Below, one piece after another: positions 11,032-53,981 of a stretch of DNA of 64,000 bases. The notes under the pieces are model-generated. The model ran no database searches. It had not been told where the DNA came from and worked only from the letters and a program-made list of their open reading frames with translations. Made by a program: the position numbers and the translations under genes. Within the stretch, counting starts at the first letter, position 1. The number at the start of each line of letters is the position of its first letter. Location of the stretch: NCBI GenBank assembly GCA_020722095.1, contig DYLM01000001.1, forward strand, positions 49,152 through 113,151, in the 5' to 3' direction. Source of the stretch: Chloroherpeton thalassium. GTDB lineage: Bacteria > Bacteroidota > Ignavibacteria > Kapaibacteriales > UBA2268.

Positions 11032-11147
11032 TATTGAAACAAATAATAATGCAAATTATCTCAAATTTCAAAAATTGAATTGTATTTTTGATAACTTTTA
11101 CTTTTCCACATATTTTGCACACAAAAATTCACAAGCAATCAAGTATA

Positions 11148-11433
11148 GAGGCTGTCTCATAAGTAAGATTTTACAAAACAATTTCCATCAATCAAGATAT
11201 TGCTTGAGGGTATTACATAACATCGAAAAACCTTATCCTCATTATTAACCTTAGTAGAAATAATTCCCATTTTTACACACCAAACCTTATAACCTTATTA
11301 AATTATTAAAATTAGGAAATAAGGTTATTGGTTTAGTTTGGTTCATTTCTTTCTACTAAGGTTAATAATGAGGATAAGGTTTTAAAATGTTTTTTTTAAT
11401 AATTTGCAAAAAATCAACTTACGAGACAGCCTC
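11148..11433. mobile_element. MITE-like element copy 1 (286 bp). Terminal inverted repeats GAGGCTGTCTCATAAGT / ACTTACGAGACAGCCTC. Contains two inverted copies of a CTACTAAGGTTAATAATGAGGATAAGGTTT module.
   Basis: Termini seen directly in the sequence. Internal 32-bp inverted repeat at 11229-11262 versus 11354-11386. Shares the AAATAAGGTTATTGGTTTAGTTTGGTTCATT module with the copies at 16445-16500 and 53546-53600. Confidence 0.7.
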
Positions 11434-16187: not shown

Positions 16188-16562
16188 GAAGCTGTCTCAT
16201 AAGTCAGCTTTGCAGTCATTCCAACGAAAGTGGGAATCCAATGTTTATTTGAAAATTTGAGAATGGTTTAACAATAGCCCACGAATTCATTCGTGGGTAA
16301 ATTTTAAAGTAAACCTTCGGAAGGTTAAAAAGAATTTTTTATGCGCAGAGCAAGCTCTTCCACTACAGATTTTACCTAACACCTAACGCCCAACACACCC
16401 AAAATCAATATACCTTATAACCTTATTTAACTGGTAAATTACGAAATAAGGTTATTGGTTTAATTTGGTTCATTTTTTTCTACTAAGGTTATTAGGTTCA
16501 ATAAGGTTTTAAAATGTTTTTATTTAATATTTTCCAAAAAGTCAACTTTTGATACAGCCTCC
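16188..16562. mobile_element. MITE-like element copy 2 (375 bp) with degenerate terminal inverted repeats (GAAGCTGTCTCATAAGTC / GTCAACTTTTGATACAGCCTCC)
   Basis: Internal GUCAUUCCAACGAAAGUGGGAAUCC GNRA hairpin; 20-bp palindrome CCCACGAATTCATTCGTGGG; AACCTTCGGAAGGTT palindrome; AAATAAGGTTATTGGTTTAATTTGGTTCATT module. Confidence 0.6.
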
Positions 16563-16590
16563 TAATGACAAAAAAGCAGAAATATGAAAA

Positions 16591-16668
16591 CCTCCCCCGC
16601 CATAAATGGCACCCCCTCTACGAGGGGGAATATTGCTAAATCCTCCTCTTTGAGGAGGTTAGGGGGAG
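16591..16668. repeat. GC-rich nested-hairpin module (CCCCCTC-TAC-GAGGGGG and CCTCCTC-TTT-GAGGAGG inside an outer CCTCCCCC...GGGGGAG stem)
   Basis: Stems seen directly. Related modules sit inside the elements at 23599-23643 and 25055-25100. Confidence 0.6.
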
Positions 16669-16802
16669 TAAATACTTCTAAATTCTCATTTTCTTTTCAG
16701 TGAAAACGAAGTTTTCATAATGACCTCGCAATGAGTAATTTCTTCACGAGCTTTTTCAATTTCTTATTAAAGATTTAGAACAAAGTAGATATAATTCATA
16801 GA

Positions 16803-20390: not shown

Positions 20391-23300
20391 ATGAAAACAA
20401 ATTTTCTTGAAATATTCAAACAAACTGACGAAATCTTCCGCTCTTATGATTATACTTTTGATGAAAAAGTTAGGAAAACTCAAAATATTTTTCATAGCTA
20501 CTTTACGTTTATAAAAAGTGTACGTATTATTTTAGACCAAAAAAGCTACGAAACCGATAATTTTTCTGAAACAAGAGATAAAGTGATTAAAACAGCTATT
20601 ATTTCTAATGTTGTATTAGGTATTATCGAAGTTTTCTATGATTCTAATTACAGTATGGATTTTAATAAAGAGGAATTCGAATTCTTTTTTGGACTATTTG
20701 TGGATAAAATTGCCAATTTTGTTTTTATAAATAAATTAGAAAAAACACTTAGAGATATTGAGCAAGAAAAGCGAAATTTAGAAATAAATCATAGAACAAA
20801 ATATGCAATAGTTCTTGATTTACTAAGAAACACTGATAGAAATCTTTACACTATCATTACTCGTAAAATGCTGAATTTCCTATTAATTAAAGGTATTCCC
20901 GAATCAAATTTATATTTTGAAAAACTCGGCACTCGCCTTGATGAAATGACCGATGTAACAAGCGAAATCAATCGTCCATCTAAGAAGCAAGTGCTTGAAC
21001 AAATTTTCTATTTATCTAATGATATTTTCAAATTAGCAGAAAAATACTTGAACGAAGACTTTATTGTCACCCAAATTCATCGTTGGGTAAATGATGAAAA
21101 TGCTAAGCATGTTACCAAAACTCTAAACGATCCCAATACTTCACTCTTCGATATTGGCGAGGCAATTCGTAGATTTTATAAGATGAACCCGGTAGATTCT
21201 AAAGATTCATCTGCTCAATCAATTGGAATGGTTGTATCATTGGTAAGAAGGTTTTTCTCGGAACAATTAGAATTTATTGATATTGCAAAAAATATTTTTA
21301 CAATCAAAGATTTTTATGAATTATTGCCGAGCATAATTTTTGCTTCAGAAAGTTATGGCACAATTGGTGGCAAAGGTTCCGGGATATTATTAGCAGCAAA
21401 AATTATTGAGAAAGAGAAAGAAAATCATCCAATTCTCAAGTCAATAAAAATTCCACGAACTTGGTTCATTCCTTCTGATGGGGAAAATAATTTTATTTAT
21501 TATAATAATTTGGAAGATGTTATTGAACAAAAATATCGCTCATTAGATGAAATTCGCAAAGAATATCCTTACACAATGCAGGTTTTTAAGAATTCACAGT
21601 TTCCAGATGAAGTTATTAACGGATTATCAAGAGTATTAGATGAAATTGGGGATAATCCAATCGTTATTAGAAGTTCCAGTTTATTAGAAGATAGAATGGG
21701 CACTGCATTTGCTGGTAAGTACAAAAGCCTCTTTGTGGCAAACCAAGGCACAAAACAAGAAAAATTAGATGCAATTTTAGATGCAGTAGCAGAAGTCTAC
21801 GCTTCCGTCTTCTCGCCTGATCCAATTAGTTACCGAAAGGAGAAAGGATTTCTTGATTTTAACGAAGGAATGGGAATAATTATTCAAGAAGTTGTTGGAG
21901 TGCGAGCGGGCGATTATTATTTCCCTGCTTTTGCTGGCGTGGGTTTCTCTAACAATGAATTTCGTTGGAGTCCTCGTATTAAACGCGAAGATGGACTTTT
22001 GCGATTAGTTCCGGGATTAGGCACGCGAGCGGTAGATAGAATTGGCAATGACTTCCCAATTTTGATTGCACCTGGTCAGATGAATTTAAGAATTAATCAA
22101 AATTTAAAAGATGCCATTACTTACTCTCCAAGATATATTGATGTTATTAATTTAAAAACAAATACGTTTGAAACTATTTCAATTAAAGATTTGATTAAAA
22201 ATGCTGGTAATCAATTCCCTCTTTTAAATGAAATATTTTCAATAATTGAAGATCACAATATAAAATCTCCAATTGGTCTGGGAATTGACACTAAAAAAGA
22301 CGAAATTATCGTTACATTCAACAATTTAATTACTCGTACTCCATATATTAAGCAATTAAAAGAACTTCTCGAAGTGCTAAAAGAGAATTTTGGACTTCCT
22401 GTTGATATTGAATTTGCTTGCGATGGCAAGAATTTATATCTTCTGCAATGTCGCCAGCAAAGTGCATTTGACTCTGAATTTACTGCATCAGTTATTCCAG
22501 AGAATATTCATAGAGAAAGAACTATTTTTAAAGCACAAAAACATATATCAAACGGAAAAATTCCTGATATTGCTTACATAGTTTATGTTGATCCTGATAA
22601 TTATACAAATGCAAAATCTATCCAAGAATTGGAAGAAACAGCCCGAGCAGTCGGGAGACTCAATCAAACTTTACCCAAACGCAGCTTCATATTAATTGGT
22701 CCAGGAAGATGGGGCACTCGTGATGATATTAGATTGGGAGTGAAAATCTCTTACTCAGATATTAATAATACTGCAATGTTAGTTGAAGTTGCAAAATCCA
22801 AAGGTTCATACACACCTGAATTATCCTTTGGAACTCACTTTTTCCAAGACTTGGTGGAAAGCCAGATTTACTATTTGCCACTTTATCCAGATAAAGAGGA
22901 GACAATGTTCAATTATGAATTTTTCAATAATGCAAATAATACTTTAGAAAGATTTGTTCCTGAATATTCACATATTTCGCACATCTTAAAAGTTATTAAT
23001 GTTCGTGAAGAAGCTAATGGAAGTATTCTAAGAATATTGGCAAATTCAGAGGAAGAAAAAGCAATAGCATTTTTAAGTAAAATTGATGGGAAAATTGAAA
23101 CAGTTGATTCAGATATTTCCAAACCTAATGTTTCGGAAGCTCAAAGCTGGAGATTGAGAATGGCAGAGGCTTTCGCAAATTCCATTGATATTGAAAAATA
23201 TCAAATCAAAGGAATTTACTTGGCTGGTTCAGTGTTTAAATCTCAAGCACGGCCAGATTCCGACATTGACATTTTTGTACATATTAATGATGAATCTCCT

Positions 23301-23492
23301 TTTAGAAAAGAGTTTATTGATTGGTGCAATGGTTGGAACTCTGCATTAGTTAATATTAATTTTAATCGTTCTGGATATAAAATGGAAAAAATATTAGATG
23401 TTTCTGTTTTTGATGATGAGGAATTAAATCAAAATCAATTCTATCAAGATATAATCAATCCAACAAAATATAAATCCAAGAAATTAAGATAA
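20391..23492 (+). CDS. multidomain protein: unknown N-terminal ~300 aa, then a PEP-synthase/pyruvate-phosphate-dikinase-type ATP-binding domain (PPDK_N-like), then a C-terminal minimal nucleotidyltransferase
   Basis: 1033 aa. GTIGGKGSGILLAAKI (cf. GGKGANLAEM); PIVIRSSSLLEDRMGTAFAGKYKS (cf. VAVRSSATAEDLPxASFAGQ); VDIEFACDGKNLYLLQCRQ (end of PPDK_N); C-terminal GIYLAGSVFKSQARPDSDIDIFVHI (GS...DxD pol-beta-type nucleotidyltransferase). No TSH phospho-His swivel and no PEP-utilizer barrel. Confidence 0.6.
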   Translation: MKTNFLEIFKQTDEIFRSYDYTFDEKVRKTQNIFHSYFTFIKSVRIILDQKSYETDNFSETRDKVIKTAIISNVVLGIIEVFYDSNYSMDFNKEEFEFFFGLFVDKIANFVFINKLEKTLRDIEQEKRNLEINHRTKYAIVLDLLRNTDRNLYTIITRKMLNFLLIKGIPESNLYFEKLGTRLDEMTDVTSEINRPSKKQVLEQIFYLSNDIFKLAEKYLNEDFIVTQIHRWVNDENAKHVTKTLNDPNTSLFDIGEAIRRFYKMNPVDSKDSSAQSIGMVVSLVRRFFSEQLEFIDIAKNIFTIKDFYELLPSIIFASESYGTIGGKGSGILLAAKIIEKEKENHPILKSIKIPRTWFIPSDGENNFIYYNNLEDVIEQKYRSLDEIRKEYPYTMQVFKNSQFPDEVINGLSRVLDEIGDNPIVIRSSSLLEDRMGTAFAGKYKSLFVANQGTKQEKLDAILDAVAEVYASVFSPDPISYRKEKGFLDFNEGMGIIIQEVVGVRAGDYYFPAFAGVGFSNNEFRWSPRIKREDGLLRLVPGLGTRAVDRIGNDFPILIAPGQMNLRINQNLKDAITYSPRYIDVINLKTNTFETISIKDLIKNAGNQFPLLNEIFSIIEDHNIKSPIGLGIDTKKDEIIVTFNNLITRTPYIKQLKELLEVLKENFGLPVDIEFACDGKNLYLLQCRQQSAFDSEFTASVIPENIHRERTIFKAQKHISNGKIPDIAYIVYVDPDNYTNAKSIQELEETARAVGRLNQTLPKRSFILIGPGRWGTRDDIRLGVKISYSDINNTAMLVEVAKSKGSYTPELSFGTHFFQDLVESQIYYLPLYPDKEETMFNYEFFNNANNTLERFVPEYSHISHILKVINVREEANGSILRILANSEEEKAIAFLSKIDGKIETVDSDISKPNVSEAQSWRLRMAEAFANSIDIEKYQIKGIYLAGSVFKSQARPDSDIDIFVHINDESPFRKEFIDWCNGWNSALVNINFNRSGYKMEKILDVSVFDDEELNQNQFYQDIINPTKYKSKKLR

Positions 23493-23536
23493 TAATAAGT
23501 ATTGGAACTTTGGTAAATATTCCCATTCTCGTAGGA

Positions 23537-23788
23537 GGTTGTCTCATAAGTCCCAGATATTTCAAAATTGTCATTCCCGTGAAAACGGTAATTTATATCC
23601 TCCCCCTTAATCCCCCTCAAAGAGGGGGAATACAAGGGGGAGGTTCTTATAAAAATATTCAAATTTGTAGTGAGGTTATATCATAAGTCAATTAAATGCA
23701 ACTTATAACATTAAGAATAAGGAATTACGGAGAATTCAAAAGAACTTAGTAGAGCATACATCCTTGTTTGCTAACTTATGAGACAACC
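23537..23788. mobile_element. MITE-like element, left copy of an inverted pair (252 bp; terminal inverted repeats GGTTGTCTCATAAGT / ACTTATGAGACAACC)
   Basis: Perfect 15-bp termini. Internal GUCAUUCCCGUGAAAACGG hairpin remnant and the nested GC hairpin CCTCCCCCTTAATCCCCCTCAAAGAGGGGGAATACAAGGGGGAGG (23599-23643). About 95% identical to the reverse complement of 24911-25160. Confidence 0.75.
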
Positions 23789-23827
23789 TGTTATTTAATT
23801 CTCATTATTTTAGCACAGATAAAGTTC

Positions 23828-23854
23828 ATCTCAAAGATGAGATCTTTTTTTTTT
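23828..23854 (+). terminator. candidate rho-independent terminator (ATCTCA-AAGA-TGAGAT followed by T10)
   Basis: 6-bp stem followed by a 10-T run, downstream of the 1033-aa gene and the left MITE. Confidence 0.4.
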
Positions 23855-23915
23855 ATAAACCTTTTTTTTGATAATTATAATAAAGAATTATTATTCCAGA
23901 TGTGGCACATCTAAA

Positions 23916-23946
23916 TTGACAAAAATATATGTTAAGCCTCTATAAT
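23916..23946 (+). promoter_or_regulatory. sigma70-like TTGACA-N19-TATAAT, immediately preceded by the 15-bp palindrome AGATGTGGCACATCT (23898-23912)
   Basis: Seen in sequence only. It would drive transcription antisense to the cyclophilin gene. In an AT-rich genome this could be chance. Confidence 0.2.
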
Positions 23947-24039
23947 ATAACATTATAGCTCATAAATACGGCGGAAAGGCTCTGTGAAATGTATTTTTTA
24001 CTCTTGTCATCGTATTTTTATCTTCAAACACATTTTTAC

Positions 24040-24067
24040 AAAAAAAAATCCCCGCTTTCGTCGGGGA
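24040..24067 (-). terminator. rho-independent terminator of the cyclophilin gene
   Basis: GC stem TCCCCG/CGGGGA with a 7-nt loop, followed on the minus strand by a 9-U run. Lies about 130 bp downstream of the stop at 24200. Confidence 0.55.
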
Positions 24068-24199
24068 TTAATAATGTATGATTCAATAATAAAAAAACCT
24101 TCCTAATGGTTCAGGAAAAATTCAACACTATGCTTAAGCATAGGGTTGATGGGAGAAACTAAACTTTCGGAAGGTTGTAATATTTTTTTTAAATTAATT

Positions 24200-24814
24200 T
24201 TACTTTAATTTAACTATCTTCATTTCGATTTTTTCTAATGGATTATCGCGTGCATCTCGTGGTGAATTAACGATTTTATCAACAACTTCCATTCCTGAAT
24301 TAACTTGACCAAATATAGAATATTGTCCATCAAGCCATTTGGCATCAGCAACACAGATAAAGAATTGTGATGATGCCGAGTTTGGATCTTGGGAACGGGC
24401 TGCTGAGATAATTCCTCTTTTATGCTCTAATTTGCTAAATTCAGCAGGAACGCGCTTTTGGTCGGGTCTTCCCATTCCCCATTTGTCTTTGGGTTCTGAC
24501 TTGGAATTAGGATCGCCACCTTGAATCATAAAGTTAGGAATAACTCTATGGAATGCCGTACCATCATAAAACTTGATAGCAACTAAACTATCAAAATTTG
24601 CTACATGTTTTGGAGCAACATCGGGAAACAATTCAATTTGAATTTTTCCAAGTTCATTTGCACCTTGAGTACAAGTAATTTCATATTTTGGATTATTGGT
24701 CACTTTTTTAGCCTCATTTTTTTTAGGGTCGCTAAAGCCATTAGTTGTAATCATAATAAATATGGCAATAAACACTGCTACAATAGCAACTGGTGTGATA
24801 ATTTTTTTATTCAT
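24200..24814 (-). CDS. ppiB: membrane-anchored cyclophilin-type peptidyl-prolyl cis-trans isomerase
   Basis: 204 aa. N-terminal transmembrane/signal segment; FHRVIPNFMIQGGD cyclophilin signature. Confidence 0.85.
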   Translation of the reverse strand: MNKKIITPVAIVAVFIAIFIMITTNGFSDPKKNEAKKVTNNPKYEITCTQGANELGKIQIELFPDVAPKHVANFDSLVAIKFYDGTAFHRVIPNFMIQGGDPNSKSEPKDKWGMGRPDQKRVPAEFSKLEHKRGIISAARSQDPNSASSQFFICVADAKWLDGQYSIFGQVNSGMEVVDKIVNSPRDARDNPLEKIEMKIVKLK

Positions 24815-24910
24815 AATTTTCCTTTTTTTTGTATTAAGTCGTTTTCTACTAAAATTTATTGAAAAGAAAGTGATTTATTATTAAAAAGGTCATAAATCTA
24901 CTCTTCCTCA

Positions 24911-25160
24911 TTTGTCTCATAAGTTAGCAAACAAGGATGTATGCTCTACTAAGTTCTTTTGAATTCTCCGTAATTCCTTATTCTTAATGTTATAAGTTGC
25001 ATTTAATTGACTTATGATATAACCTCACTACAAATTTGAATATTTTTATAAGAACCTCCCCCTTTATATTTCCCTCTTTGAGGGGGATTAAGGGGGAGGA
25101 TATAAATTACCGTTTTCACAGGTATGACAATTTTGAAATATCTGGGACTTATGAGACAAC
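24911..25160. mobile_element. MITE-like element, right copy of the inverted pair (reverse complement of 23537-23788, ~95% identity)
   Basis: Direct comparison of the two copies finds only two short mismatch patches (GTCATACCTGTG vs GTCATTCCCGTG; AGAGGGAAATATAAAGGGGG vs AGAGGGGGAATACAAGGGGG). Confidence 0.75.
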
Positions 25161-25261
25161 CTCTTTTGTCTCAGAACTTTCCTAAGGTTTCAAACCTTCG
25201 GAAGGTTAAAATTCCTCCCAACGTCCAACACCTTCATAACATTATCAAATTATCTAATTTT

Positions 25262-37659: not shown

Positions 37660-38868
37660 ATGTCTGAAATCAAAAAAATTGGAATTATCACTTCTGGTGG
37701 TGATTGTGGTGGATTGAATGCTGTAATTATTGGAGCAGCACGAATGGCAAATCATCTGGGAATAGAAGCAACACTCATACCTAATGGTTATGCTGGTTTA
37801 TATAATTTGGATAAGTTAGATTTAGTAACTATTGATACGGTCCGTGCCGACAAAATTCATTCGGGTATTGCTGGCTCGGAAGCTGGACACTCCCGCGTAA
37901 AAATTAGCAAAATTAAGGATCCAAATAAATACGATAAAATTAAAGCAGGATTAAAGAAACACGGTATTGATGGATTAGTTATCGCTGGTGGAGATGATAC
38001 TGGTTCGGTTGTGGTTGATTTATCCAAACAAGGCATCAAGTGCGTTCACGTTCCCAAAACAATGGATTTAGACCTTCAAACTTATTCTGTGGGTGGCGAT
38101 TCCACAATTAATAGAATTTCCAAATTTACTGATGAATTAAGAACAACAGGCATTACACACAATCGTGCTTTAATAATTGAAGTATTTGGTAGATATGCTG
38201 GACATACTGCTTTTCGTGGTGGTTTAGGAGCAGATGCAGATGCAATTCTTATTCCTGAAGTTGAAGTAGATTACAAAGTACTTTACGAACATTTCAAAGA
38301 AAAATATATCGAAAGATTAGTTTCCAGCGATGTGAAAGGTGCTACTTATATTATTGTTGCTGCCGAAGGACTCAAGAATAAAGACGGACAATACTTTACT
38401 GATGATGCTGGACAAGATTCGTTTGGTCATCAGAAATTATCTGGTGTTGGAAAATTTATCCGTAGGCAATTAGAAGGCTATATGCAAAAGGATCCTATTT
38501 GGCAAGAAGTTCTGAAGAACGAAGGAATTTTTGTTGAAGGAATTTATGAATATCCAGAAATTCGCGAAGTATCTCTTGGGCATTTAGTTCGTGCAGGAGC
38601 AACAAGTTCTTATGATGTTACTTTTGGCAAGCAAACAGGCGGAGCAGGTGTATATTTGATGAATAATGGGATTTTTGGGGTTACTGTTGTGGGGGTTGAA
38701 TCATCGGAAATCACATATATTTCTACTGAAGAAGCAATCAAACAAAGATATGTAGATTTAGACGAAATCTCATTCCACGAAGCAATGGGAGTTTGTTTCG
38801 GTCGCGATCCAATAGAATATAATGTATCATTCAAGGAACATCAAGGCAAAATCCACAGGTATATGTAA
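37660..38868 (+). CDS. pfp: 6-phosphofructokinase, predicted pyrophosphate-dependent
   Basis: 402 aa. IAGGDDTG (Asp where ATP-PFKs have Gly, cf. GGDGS) and PKTMDLD (Lys as in PPi-PFK PKTIDND). Confidence 0.75.
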   Translation: MSEIKKIGIITSGGDCGGLNAVIIGAARMANHLGIEATLIPNGYAGLYNLDKLDLVTIDTVRADKIHSGIAGSEAGHSRVKISKIKDPNKYDKIKAGLKKHGIDGLVIAGGDDTGSVVVDLSKQGIKCVHVPKTMDLDLQTYSVGGDSTINRISKFTDELRTTGITHNRALIIEVFGRYAGHTAFRGGLGADADAILIPEVEVDYKVLYEHFKEKYIERLVSSDVKGATYIIVAAEGLKNKDGQYFTDDAGQDSFGHQKLSGVGKFIRRQLEGYMQKDPIWQEVLKNEGIFVEGIYEYPEIREVSLGHLVRAGATSSYDVTFGKQTGGAGVYLMNNGIFGVTVVGVESSEITYISTEEAIKQRYVDLDEISFHEAMGVCFGRDPIEYNVSFKEHQGKIHRYM

Positions 38869-39007
38869 TAAGTCGAAGTTTTTCTTGTAATACTAAAAAA
38901 ACAAGAATTTTTTATCAATCAACTTTTTTCTAATTTATTGTTAAGTGCTCTCCTGCCAAAAGTTGAATAAAAAAAGTGATATTGTTTACTTCAGTTATTC
39001 GAATAAG

Positions 39008-39136
39008 AGGCTGTCTCATAAGTCAGTTTTTCTGTCATTCCCACGAAAGTGGGAATCTATAAATCCGCTCTGGCAGTGGATCCCCGTTTGCACGGGAATG
39101 ACACTTGTGAAATATTTTGGACTTATGAGACAGCCT
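39008..39136. mobile_element. minimal MITE-like element (129 bp) with perfect 17-bp terminal inverted repeats AGGCTGTCTCATAAGTC
   Basis: Two internal GNRA hairpins in opposite orientation: GUCAUUCCCACGAAAGUGGGAAUC and GAUCCCCGUUUGCACGGGAAUGAC. Confidence 0.75.
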
Positions 39137-39331
39137 CTTAGTTTATTCAGGTAATTAAAAATAAGTTCGTCAGTAATATTTATCACTCAACACTCAACAC
39201 CCAAATAATGTTCAGATTAAACTATAAATTTTAATTTGAATTATTTGCTATATTTTCCAACAATTCAAAATAGGTTTAGAAATATTAGTTAATTTTGTAA
39301 ATTATTTGTATTCCAAATTGGAAAGAGAATT

Positions 39332-53451: not shown

Positions 53452-53763
53452 TTGTCATTCCCGTGCAAACGGGAATCCAGTGAAGCAAGATGAGGCTCTC
53501 TCATAAGCTAATTTTTTAAACATTTTAAAACCTTATTTAACCTACCAACCTTAGTAGAAAGCAATGAACCAAACCAAACCAATAACCTTATTTCCTAATT
53601 TTTTTAATTAAATATGTTAATAAGGTTTTGTGTGTAAAAATTGAAATTATTTCTACTAAGGTTAATAATGAAAATAAGGTTTTTCGATGTTATGTAATTC
53701 CCACAAACCATATCTTGATTGATGGAAATTGTTTTGTAAAAGCTGACTTATGAGACAGTCTCT
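53452..53763. mobile_element. MITE-like element copy (about 310 bp)
   Basis: GUCAUUCCCGUGCAAACGGGAAUCC GNRA hairpin at the left end. Termini GAGGCTCTCTCATAAG / GACTTATGAGACAGTCTC. Inverted internal CTACTAAGGTT...AATAAGGTTTT modules. Contains AAATAAGGTTATTGGTTTGGTTTGGTTCATTGC in reverse orientation. Confidence 0.65.
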
Positions 53764-53981
53764 TGGGGGTTTTATTCTTATTCTATATTTGGGTAGAGCA
53801 AGATATACCACTACAAGATAGAGGAAGTATTATTTATTAGAACCTACCCCTAACCCCGCCTGTACCGACATGCAGGGATCAGTGAAGGAGAAAAATTATT
53901 ATTAATAATAAAAAAAATGTCCGACATTTTAAAATATCGGACATCTAAAGGCAAATTGTTGTTTATCTAAATATTATTAAG

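Follow-up and report, generated by a model that had tools for sequence, protein, structure and literature searches.

The Correia elements and the NIME/dRS3 arrays of Neisseria are intergenic, hairpin-forming miniature elements that are mosaics of small repeats. Correia elements carry a TA duplication, and their terminal repeats are unrelated to those described here. REP sequences and BIMEs are 20–40-nt imperfect palindromes tied to a single-copy Y1 (RAYT) transposase gene. Non-coding miniature transposons (MITEs) derived from the IS1182 family are known from Methanosarcina acetivorans, where ISMac2 is the partner; these MITEs are 160–169 bp long, and one family has DR = 0 (PMC3852290). In staphylococci, the IS1182-family elements IS1272 and TnSha1 target hairpins, often terminators, just downstream of genes; part of the stem is lost on insertion, no duplication arises, and the same target can be struck repeatedly (PMC5678879, PMC4923244). 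Such hairpin replacement is documented for staphylococcal IS1272, but not for the Bacteroidota/Ignavibacteriota clade considered below, nor for any MITE.

The elements reported here lie in a 64,000-nucleotide stretch of DNA, hereafter the window. They share the core of their terminal repeat, (A)GAGGCTGTCTCATAAGT, with ISMsp1 (Microscilla sp. PRE1 plasmid pSD15), ISBf3 and ISBce1. These three insertion sequences (IS) are autonomous, 1.75–1.86 kb long, and encode a DDE transposase of ~500–550 aa, whereas the window elements are short, non-coding and have unrelated interiors. The transposase of IS1272 is only ~36% identical to that of the ISMsp1-type clade. The ISMac2-partnered MITEs resemble the window elements in being short, multi-copy and non-coding, with terminal repeats matching an IS1182-family IS, but they are archaeal, have other termini, and no mosaic or nested structure has been described for them.

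The window, which stems from an uncultured member of the FCB group, has 32% G+C and carries housekeeping genes, including dnaB, mutL and the genes for cyclophilin, 2-oxoacid:ferredoxin oxidoreductase, PFK, cytochrome bd and H+-PPase, as well as a gene for an M1 peptidase with a type-IX secretion tail. A protein 100% identical to the window cyclophilin is present in JGI metagenome 3300000227. Beyond the 90%-identity cluster to which this cyclophilin belongs, no homologue exceeds 76% identity, and those that carry a name are labelled Kapabacteria, Ignavibacteriae or Bacteroidota.

Searching the window for GGCTGTCTCATAAGT with up to two mismatches gave 11 matches against 0.09 expected, and none of 100 shuffles reached 11. 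The matches form inverted pairs that bound six intergenic elements, the exception being a truncated terminus of copy 4. The 12-nt core GAGGCTGTCTCA, again with up to two mismatches, matched 14 times against 1.5 expected; 11 of these matches are bounds of the six elements, while the left end of copy 4, which is the twelfth terminus, is truncated and does not reach the threshold. The terminal inverted repeat, (TAA)GAGGCTGTCTCATAAGT(C), spans ~17–21 nt, and in copy 5 the two ends match perfectly over 21 nt. The terminal repeat can also be written (AA)GAGGCTGTCTCA(T/A)AAGT. An earlier note on this DNA had described a family of at least six copies with terminal inverted repeats in common. The shared repeats and all six loci stand, one end of copy 4 being truncated, but the boundaries of copies 2–6 had to be shifted and only those of copy 1 are unchanged (Table 1). 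Copy 6 had been placed from 53452; its true start is 53492, and a separate small hairpin had been included. The variable size was correctly seen, and the range of 129–375 bp becomes 131–374 bp with the corrected boundaries.

Table 1. Elements, internal inverted repeat and small hairpins, in window coordinates
Feature	Position	Strand	Description
Copy 1	11148–11433	+	Type A, 286 bp; terminal repeats 11148–11164 and 11417–11433
Copy 2	16188–16561	+	374-bp mosaic; terminal repeats 16188–16204 and 16545–16561
Copy 3	23535–23790	+	Type B, 256 bp
Copy 4	24912–25163	-	Type B; intact terminus 25147–25163; cyclophilin-side terminus truncated (TTGTCTCATAAGT, 24912–24924)
Copy 5	39007–39137	+	Type C, 131 bp
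Copy 6	53492–53762	-	Type A; reverse complement of copy 1
Solo small hairpin GTCATTCCCGTGCAAACGGGAAT	53452–53476		Outside the terminal repeat of copy 6, no part of copy 6
Internal inverted repeat of copy 1	11219–11263 / 11347–11391		Arms of 45 nt, 91% complementary
Hairpin ATTCCC-N8-GGGAAT	16218, 23573, 39037, 39080; 53457		First four inside elements; last outside
Hairpin CCCCTC-N3-GAGGGG	23613, 25071; 16613		First two inside elements; last outside
Hairpin AACCTTCGGAAGGTT	16312; 24162, 25193		First inside an element; last two outside

All six copies are intergenic and each adjoins at least one gene 3' end, at distances of 9–273 nt, as the earlier observation that they abut gene ends had it. 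The flanking genes are convergent for three copies and divergent for none. Copy 1 follows the stop of the M1-peptidase gene by 26 nt and precedes dnaB by 116 nt, and copy 2 starts 9 nt past the stop of a gene for a 166-aa protein. Copy 3 is 42 nt downstream of the gene for a 1033-aa protein with a PPDK_N domain, and the cyclophilin gene points its 3' end towards it. Copy 4 lies 98 nt downstream of the TPP-enzyme gene stop, copy 5 138 nt downstream of the PFK gene, and copy 6 between the convergent cytochrome bd-II and H+-PPase genes. The 1033-aa protein (20391–23492) joins PPDK_N (PEP/pyruvate-binding) to a C-terminal nucleotidyltransferase (NTP_transf_2/Polbeta), an uncommon architecture that the sister species shares.

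Copies 3 and 4 stand on either side of the cyclophilin gene (24200–24814, minus strand) and, with their intact termini facing outward, make up a 1,629-bp unit (23535–25163) that looks like a composite transposon. A composite transposon importing this gene was considered and rejected: the cyclophilin gene was not brought in by copies 3 and 4, because it adjoins the same TPP-enzyme gene in relatives without the elements.

No transposase was detected in the window; tblastn with an IS1182 transposase gave a single weak match (E = 7.8), in line with the earlier statement that the cognate IS is absent here and with the copies not being parts of full IS elements. None of the six elements contains a Pfam-bearing ORF. 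The cognate transposase was not found in ~80 kb of the source genome, made up of the window and two contigs (L223 and L225). The elements are below ~600 bp, non-coding and multi-copy, have terminal inverted repeats that match those of an autonomous IS, and show evidence of movement. The one MITE feature that they lack is a classical short target-site duplication, which is common but not general among MITEs and which the parent family lacks as well. The six repeats are thus real MITEs and add a further case to a type of mobile DNA that is already known.

Three types of interior, A, B and C, are found among the six copies. Type A comprises copies 1 and 6 and the right half of copy 2; copy 1 is 89% identical to the reverse complement of copy 6 over 246 nt. 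Type B comprises copies 3 and 4, which are 97% identical over 252 nt and lie in opposite orientation. Type C is represented by copy 5 and by the left 51–57 nt of copies 2, 3 and 4. Copy 5 consists of a terminal repeat, the hairpin ATTCCC-N8-GGGAAT, a spacer, an inverted hairpin and a second terminal repeat. The left 51 nt of copy 2 are type C, with the terminal repeat and the ATTCC hairpin, and its right ~150 nt are type A-like. The internal inverted repeat that had been noted in copy 1 is present, although its arms are 45 nt long rather than 32 bp, and this module is shared with copy 6 and with the right half of copy 2. Predicted folds are very stable compared with those of shuffled sequences, at −106 kcal/mol for copy 1 (z = −14), −88 kcal/mol for copy 3 (z = −8) and −67 kcal/mol for copy 5 (z = −9). 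The elements thus fold into long hairpins, which the earlier note had suggested for copy 1.

The smaller modules have a different status. The earlier note had regarded them as reusable parts of the family, but each of the three hairpins listed in Table 1 also occurs outside the elements. These hairpins are small repeats in their own right, clustered with the MITEs, and do not represent building blocks peculiar to the family. The hairpin GTCATTCC(C)-N8-(G)GGAAT(GAC), found inside and outside the window elements, is also present in elements of other phyla (L009, L033, L043, L050 and L095). In the stem of the ATTCCC-type hairpin, the variants CCCAC/GTGGG and CCCGT/ACGGG differ by compensatory changes. 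G/C-rich nested palindromes, CCTCCCCC...CCCCCTC-N3-GAGGGGG...GGGGGAGG, share the same intergenic regions (16590–16670, 23598–23645, 25055–25100 and 53840–53860), as do short direct repeats of the CAACACC type (16380–16400, 25215–25235 and 39196–39215). The small inner hairpins, ATTCCC-N8-GGGAAT among them, could be REP-like. A REP/BIME identity does not suit the large elements, whose terminal repeats of 17–21 nt are identical to IS1182 ends. The inner hairpin ATTCCC-N8-GGGAAT also appears to fit the consensus of Neisseria dRS3, a resemblance that may be coincidental.

The stability of the folds raises the possibility that the elements are selected structured RNAs or bidirectional terminators whose resemblance to IS ends is secondary. 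Their position just downstream of genes and the paired substitutions in the inner hairpins across copies would fit this explanation. However, only a tRNA was returned by Rfam at gathering score over the whole window, and interiors are unrelated between lineages and have been replaced within one site over a short evolutionary distance. A clear U-tract after the stem is missing in most window copies. Promoter and terminator scans around copies 3, 4 and 5 gave nothing beyond chance and did not call the elements terminators. Presence and absence at orthologous sites further speak against an essential role. We regard selection as RNAs or terminators as highly improbable; secondary terminator activity of the MITEs may nevertheless occur.

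The termini had not been recognized previously, and in the literature the terminus string matched nothing but unrelated primers from eukaryotes. A scan of a collection holding one genome per species used the pattern GAGGYTGTCTCATAAGT, which matched at at least 117 loci, so that the termini do recur elsewhere. The matches listed were mostly Saprospiraceae, Ignavibacteria/Kapabacteria, Chlorobiota, Chitinophagales, Cytophagales and Marinilabiliaceae MAGs, and some were from Chloroflexota and Acidobacteriota. Roughly a hundred matches are expected by chance in this collection, and lone matches therefore carry little meaning. At ~60 loci among the matches listed, an inverted partner was located 49–426 bp away, with interiors that are mutually unrelated. 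A transposase was nearby at only two of the at least 117 loci, again among the matches listed.

Clustering of the ORFs just inside the termini revealed one recurrent protein with a transposase signature, 495–531 aa long, with the Pfam domains DUF772, DDE_Tnp_1 and DDE_Tnp_1_6. Against NF033551, the NCBIfam IS1182 model (cutoff 270), the proteins of loci L075 and L099 scored 429 and 468 bits, respectively. L075, from Belliella pelovolcani, is a 1,827-bp IS bounded by GAGGCTGTCTCAAAAAGT and ACTTATGAGACAGCCTC, encodes a 495-aa transposase and has the same 18-nt end as the window elements. The terminus match at L099 was discarded as an IS end, as it is a simple terminator-like hairpin beside an IS. 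With the transposase, 80 metagenome relatives were fetched, 66 loci of which were evaluable for their ends; the core motif was inverted at both ends in 58 of the 66. The IS in these relatives have a median length of 1,800 bp (range 1,637–1,942) and, like L075, show the IS1182 layout of a single ORF in ~1.3–1.95 kb with terminal inverted repeats. Gut IS copies that are 99% identical and have different flanks fixed the ends as AAGAGGCTGTCTC...GAGACAGCCTCTT. A scan of annotated plasmids gave the ends AGAAGAGGCTGTCTCAAAAG and AGAAGAGGCCGTCTCAAAAG for ISMsp1, AAAGAGGTTGTCCCAAAAG for ISBce1 and GAGGTTGTGTCA for ISBf3.

Given L075, the metagenome relatives and the named elements, the formerly unrecognized termini are the hallmark of a large IS1182-family clade, and judged by their sequence they are the terminal inverted repeats of its ISMsp1-like members. 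These matches uphold the earlier reading of the copies as non-autonomous MITE-like elements whose cognate IS lies elsewhere. One difference is seen at position 13 of the terminal repeat, which is mostly T in the window elements and A in the ISMsp1 group. Most full-length IS have CAAAAG where the window elements have CATAAG, and the T variant occurs only in some IS ends (the right end of L075, L164 and L197).

Many full-length members of the IS1182 family have ends that are themselves hairpins followed by a T-run, with the terminal repeat, a short loop, an inverted copy and TTTT in succession. Examples are ISBf3 (L228, 289–340 and 2100–2149), L182/L184 (1331–1360) and the ends of L123, L176, L186 and L197. 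Such ends resemble a terminator that faces outward or inward, or else an imitation of the target hairpin. An element much like those of Algoriphagus (L049, 3891–4009; L074, 6387–6525) is carried by a contig assigned to Limnohabitans (Betaproteobacteria; L117, 2618–2736); this contig may be mis-binned Cytophagales DNA.

The junctions were analyzed in 72 short and 53 full-length elements. Duplications of 2–9 nt at offsets 0–3 were absent, also after A/T runs had been stripped, and none was seen at the six window copies; the 2–9-bp target-site duplications expected from the earlier note showed no excess. Full-length IS are flanked by A at −1/−2 and T at +1/+2 in 43–49 of 53 cases. Flank-to-flank complementarity exceeded that of all 500 shuffled pairings, nine short elements have perfect inverted-repeat extensions of at least 6 nt (0.41 expected), and one gut IS sits in a perfect 26-nt palindrome. 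In other genomes, half of the elements lie within 28 nt of a gene 3' end (the median distance), and the elements are enriched in convergent intergenic regions (19/52 vs 51/287, Fisher P = 0.0045). The lack of duplication, the palindromic flanks and the location at gene 3' ends agree with a parent family of the IS1272 type, which the elements also resemble in that one site holds different variants. The palindromy of the flanks could alternatively reflect lineage-specific terminal repeats that are longer than the conserved core.

The same flanks bear on whether the motif belongs to the transposon at all. The palindrome GAGGCTGTCTCA...TGAGACAGCCTC could be a dispersed REP- or terminator-like target hairpin that IS1182 and other inserts have split, much as IS1397 does in BIMEs. 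Simple insert-free hairpins with A-run and T-run flanks exist (L099 3889–3935, L092 and L064), the A and T preferences next to full-length IS are as this would predict, and the family is known for hairpin targeting. Nevertheless, the motif travels with transposases of only 36–58% identity, on Bacteroidota plasmids, in Bacillus, and in gut, soil and marine metagenomes, and a passive chromosomal target would not conserve 12–17 nt across phyla. ISMsp1, ISBf3 and ISBce1, clade members named in ISfinder, end in the motif, and no other enzyme, such as a RAYT, turned up beside it. A passive target is therefore very unlikely, and we treat the motif as the end of the mobile element.

Comparison with related genomes shows that the elements occupy different positions. 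The copies are confirmed by another assembly of the organism (L208/L225, 99.9% identical), which contributes a seventh of ~131 bp (L225, 18823–18953). This seventh copy lies ~7 kb outside the left end of the window and is flanked by the convergent genes for OsmC and DapB. Relatives at ~85–91% nucleotide identity were reached via 90%-identity protein clusters. Copy 5 is 93% identical to an element between a TPP-enzyme gene and a cyclophilin gene (L205, 3186–3318) and 88% identical to one beside the gene for the 166-aa protein in a sister MAG (L221, 2819–2949). The type C unit thus lies at three different, non-orthologous loci in three related genomes, and a type C element is also found in Ignavibacteriaceae MAGs.

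Two sites document changes in place. The copy 4 site is empty in L199–L204, where ~23 nt of a 73-bp intergenic region are unaligned against 396 in the window; it holds a type C element in L205 and a type B element in the window, which shares its right junction with L205. The empty site in the sister species also lacks ~100 nt of neighboring sequence, and the junction is not clean. The site orthologous to copy 2 is occupied in the sister species by a simple type C element of 131 bp that ends on the right in the same unusual terminus, GATACAGCCTCC. Compared with it, copy 2 has exchanged ~80 nt of interior for ~300 nt of other repeats, and the window has gained ~160 nt beyond the right end.

These comparisons also bear on the explanation that the copies are remnants of full-length IS1182 insertions, deleted in situ, and not short units that transpose. 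Both termini are kept and full-length relatives exist in other genomes, as such remnants would require. The interiors, however, have no similarity to IS interiors, and the recurrence of the 131-bp type C unit at 88–93% identity in the three genomes and in Ignavibacteriaceae is at odds with deletion in situ. The identity of copies 3 and 4, and of copies 1 and 6, likewise implies copying of a short unit. In-situ deletion is accordingly extremely improbable, and transposition of the short units as MITEs accounts better for their distribution.

The window and the sister species GCA_020720105.1 cease to be collinear at 11127 and 11457, within ~20–25 nt of copy 1. Other ends of collinearity lie at 38868 (the PFK stop codon, ~140 nt before copy 5) and at ~24161, ~370 nt from copy 3 (comparisons with L217, L221, L199 and L209). 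The 14.7-kb block from cyclophilin to PFK has different neighbors in the sister species. Rearrangement by recombination between copies is suggested at these synteny breaks. Metagenome contigs of the organism end inside or at the elements (L001, window 23690–25064; the start of L223, near 53760), and the elements fragment short-read assemblies of the genome.

The observations comprise a repeat family with IS1182-type termini, no coding capacity, no duplications, palindromic flanks, a location at gene 3' ends and different loci in relatives. We consider it very probable that the six elements are non-autonomous MITEs of an ISMsp1-type IS1182 IS, moved in trans and inserting into hairpins without duplication. 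Weighing against this reading are the negative search for a cognate transposase in ~80 kb of the genome, the unclean junction at the empty copy 4 site, the CAAAAG of most full-length IS and the low identity of the IS1272 transposase to that of the clade. They would retain only the ~17–21-nt terminal inverted repeats that the DDE transposase of the family is presumed to recognize, and a transposase encoded elsewhere would move them in trans. Insertion would take place in hairpin-forming DNA, typically the terminator just downstream of a gene. By analogy with IS1272, part of the target stem would be removed and no target-site duplication made, which would leave palindromic remnants in the flanks and elements beside gene 3' ends. 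Repeated insertion at the same sites would then produce nested, mosaic elements of differing length. Sites may be hit repeatedly, and mosaics may become nested, because the elements form long hairpins themselves and are surrounded by further small hairpin repeats.

A bolder reading is that these are the first MITEs to spread by hairpin-replacing transposition of the IS1272 type in several phyla, with terminator hairpins and one another as their targets. We advance it tentatively, as possible though not the likelier outcome. The phyla concerned may be Bacteroidota, Ignavibacteriota/Chlorobiota and, apparently, Chloroflexota and Acidobacteriota. If true, mosaics nested within one another would accumulate downstream of genes, and the elements would give rise to genome rearrangements; three of the six copies lie at synteny breaks with the sister species.

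In terms of annotation, the results assign an unannotated, assembly-breaking repeat family of uncultured FCB-group genomes to a specific IS family, and provide a simple 12–17-nt signature, GAGGCTGTCTCA(W)AAG, by which the IS and the miniature elements derived from it can be annotated. In terms of mechanism, the missing duplication, palindromic flanks and terminator-side position would, by analogy, widen the unusual hairpin targeting of IS1272 to take in a distant clade as well as non-autonomous elements, with a bearing on how terminator regions evolve. In terms of genome structure, the element sites coincide with rearrangement breakpoints and with fragmented metagenome assemblies in these genomes. 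Beyond these three aspects, the elements are ordinary mobile DNA.
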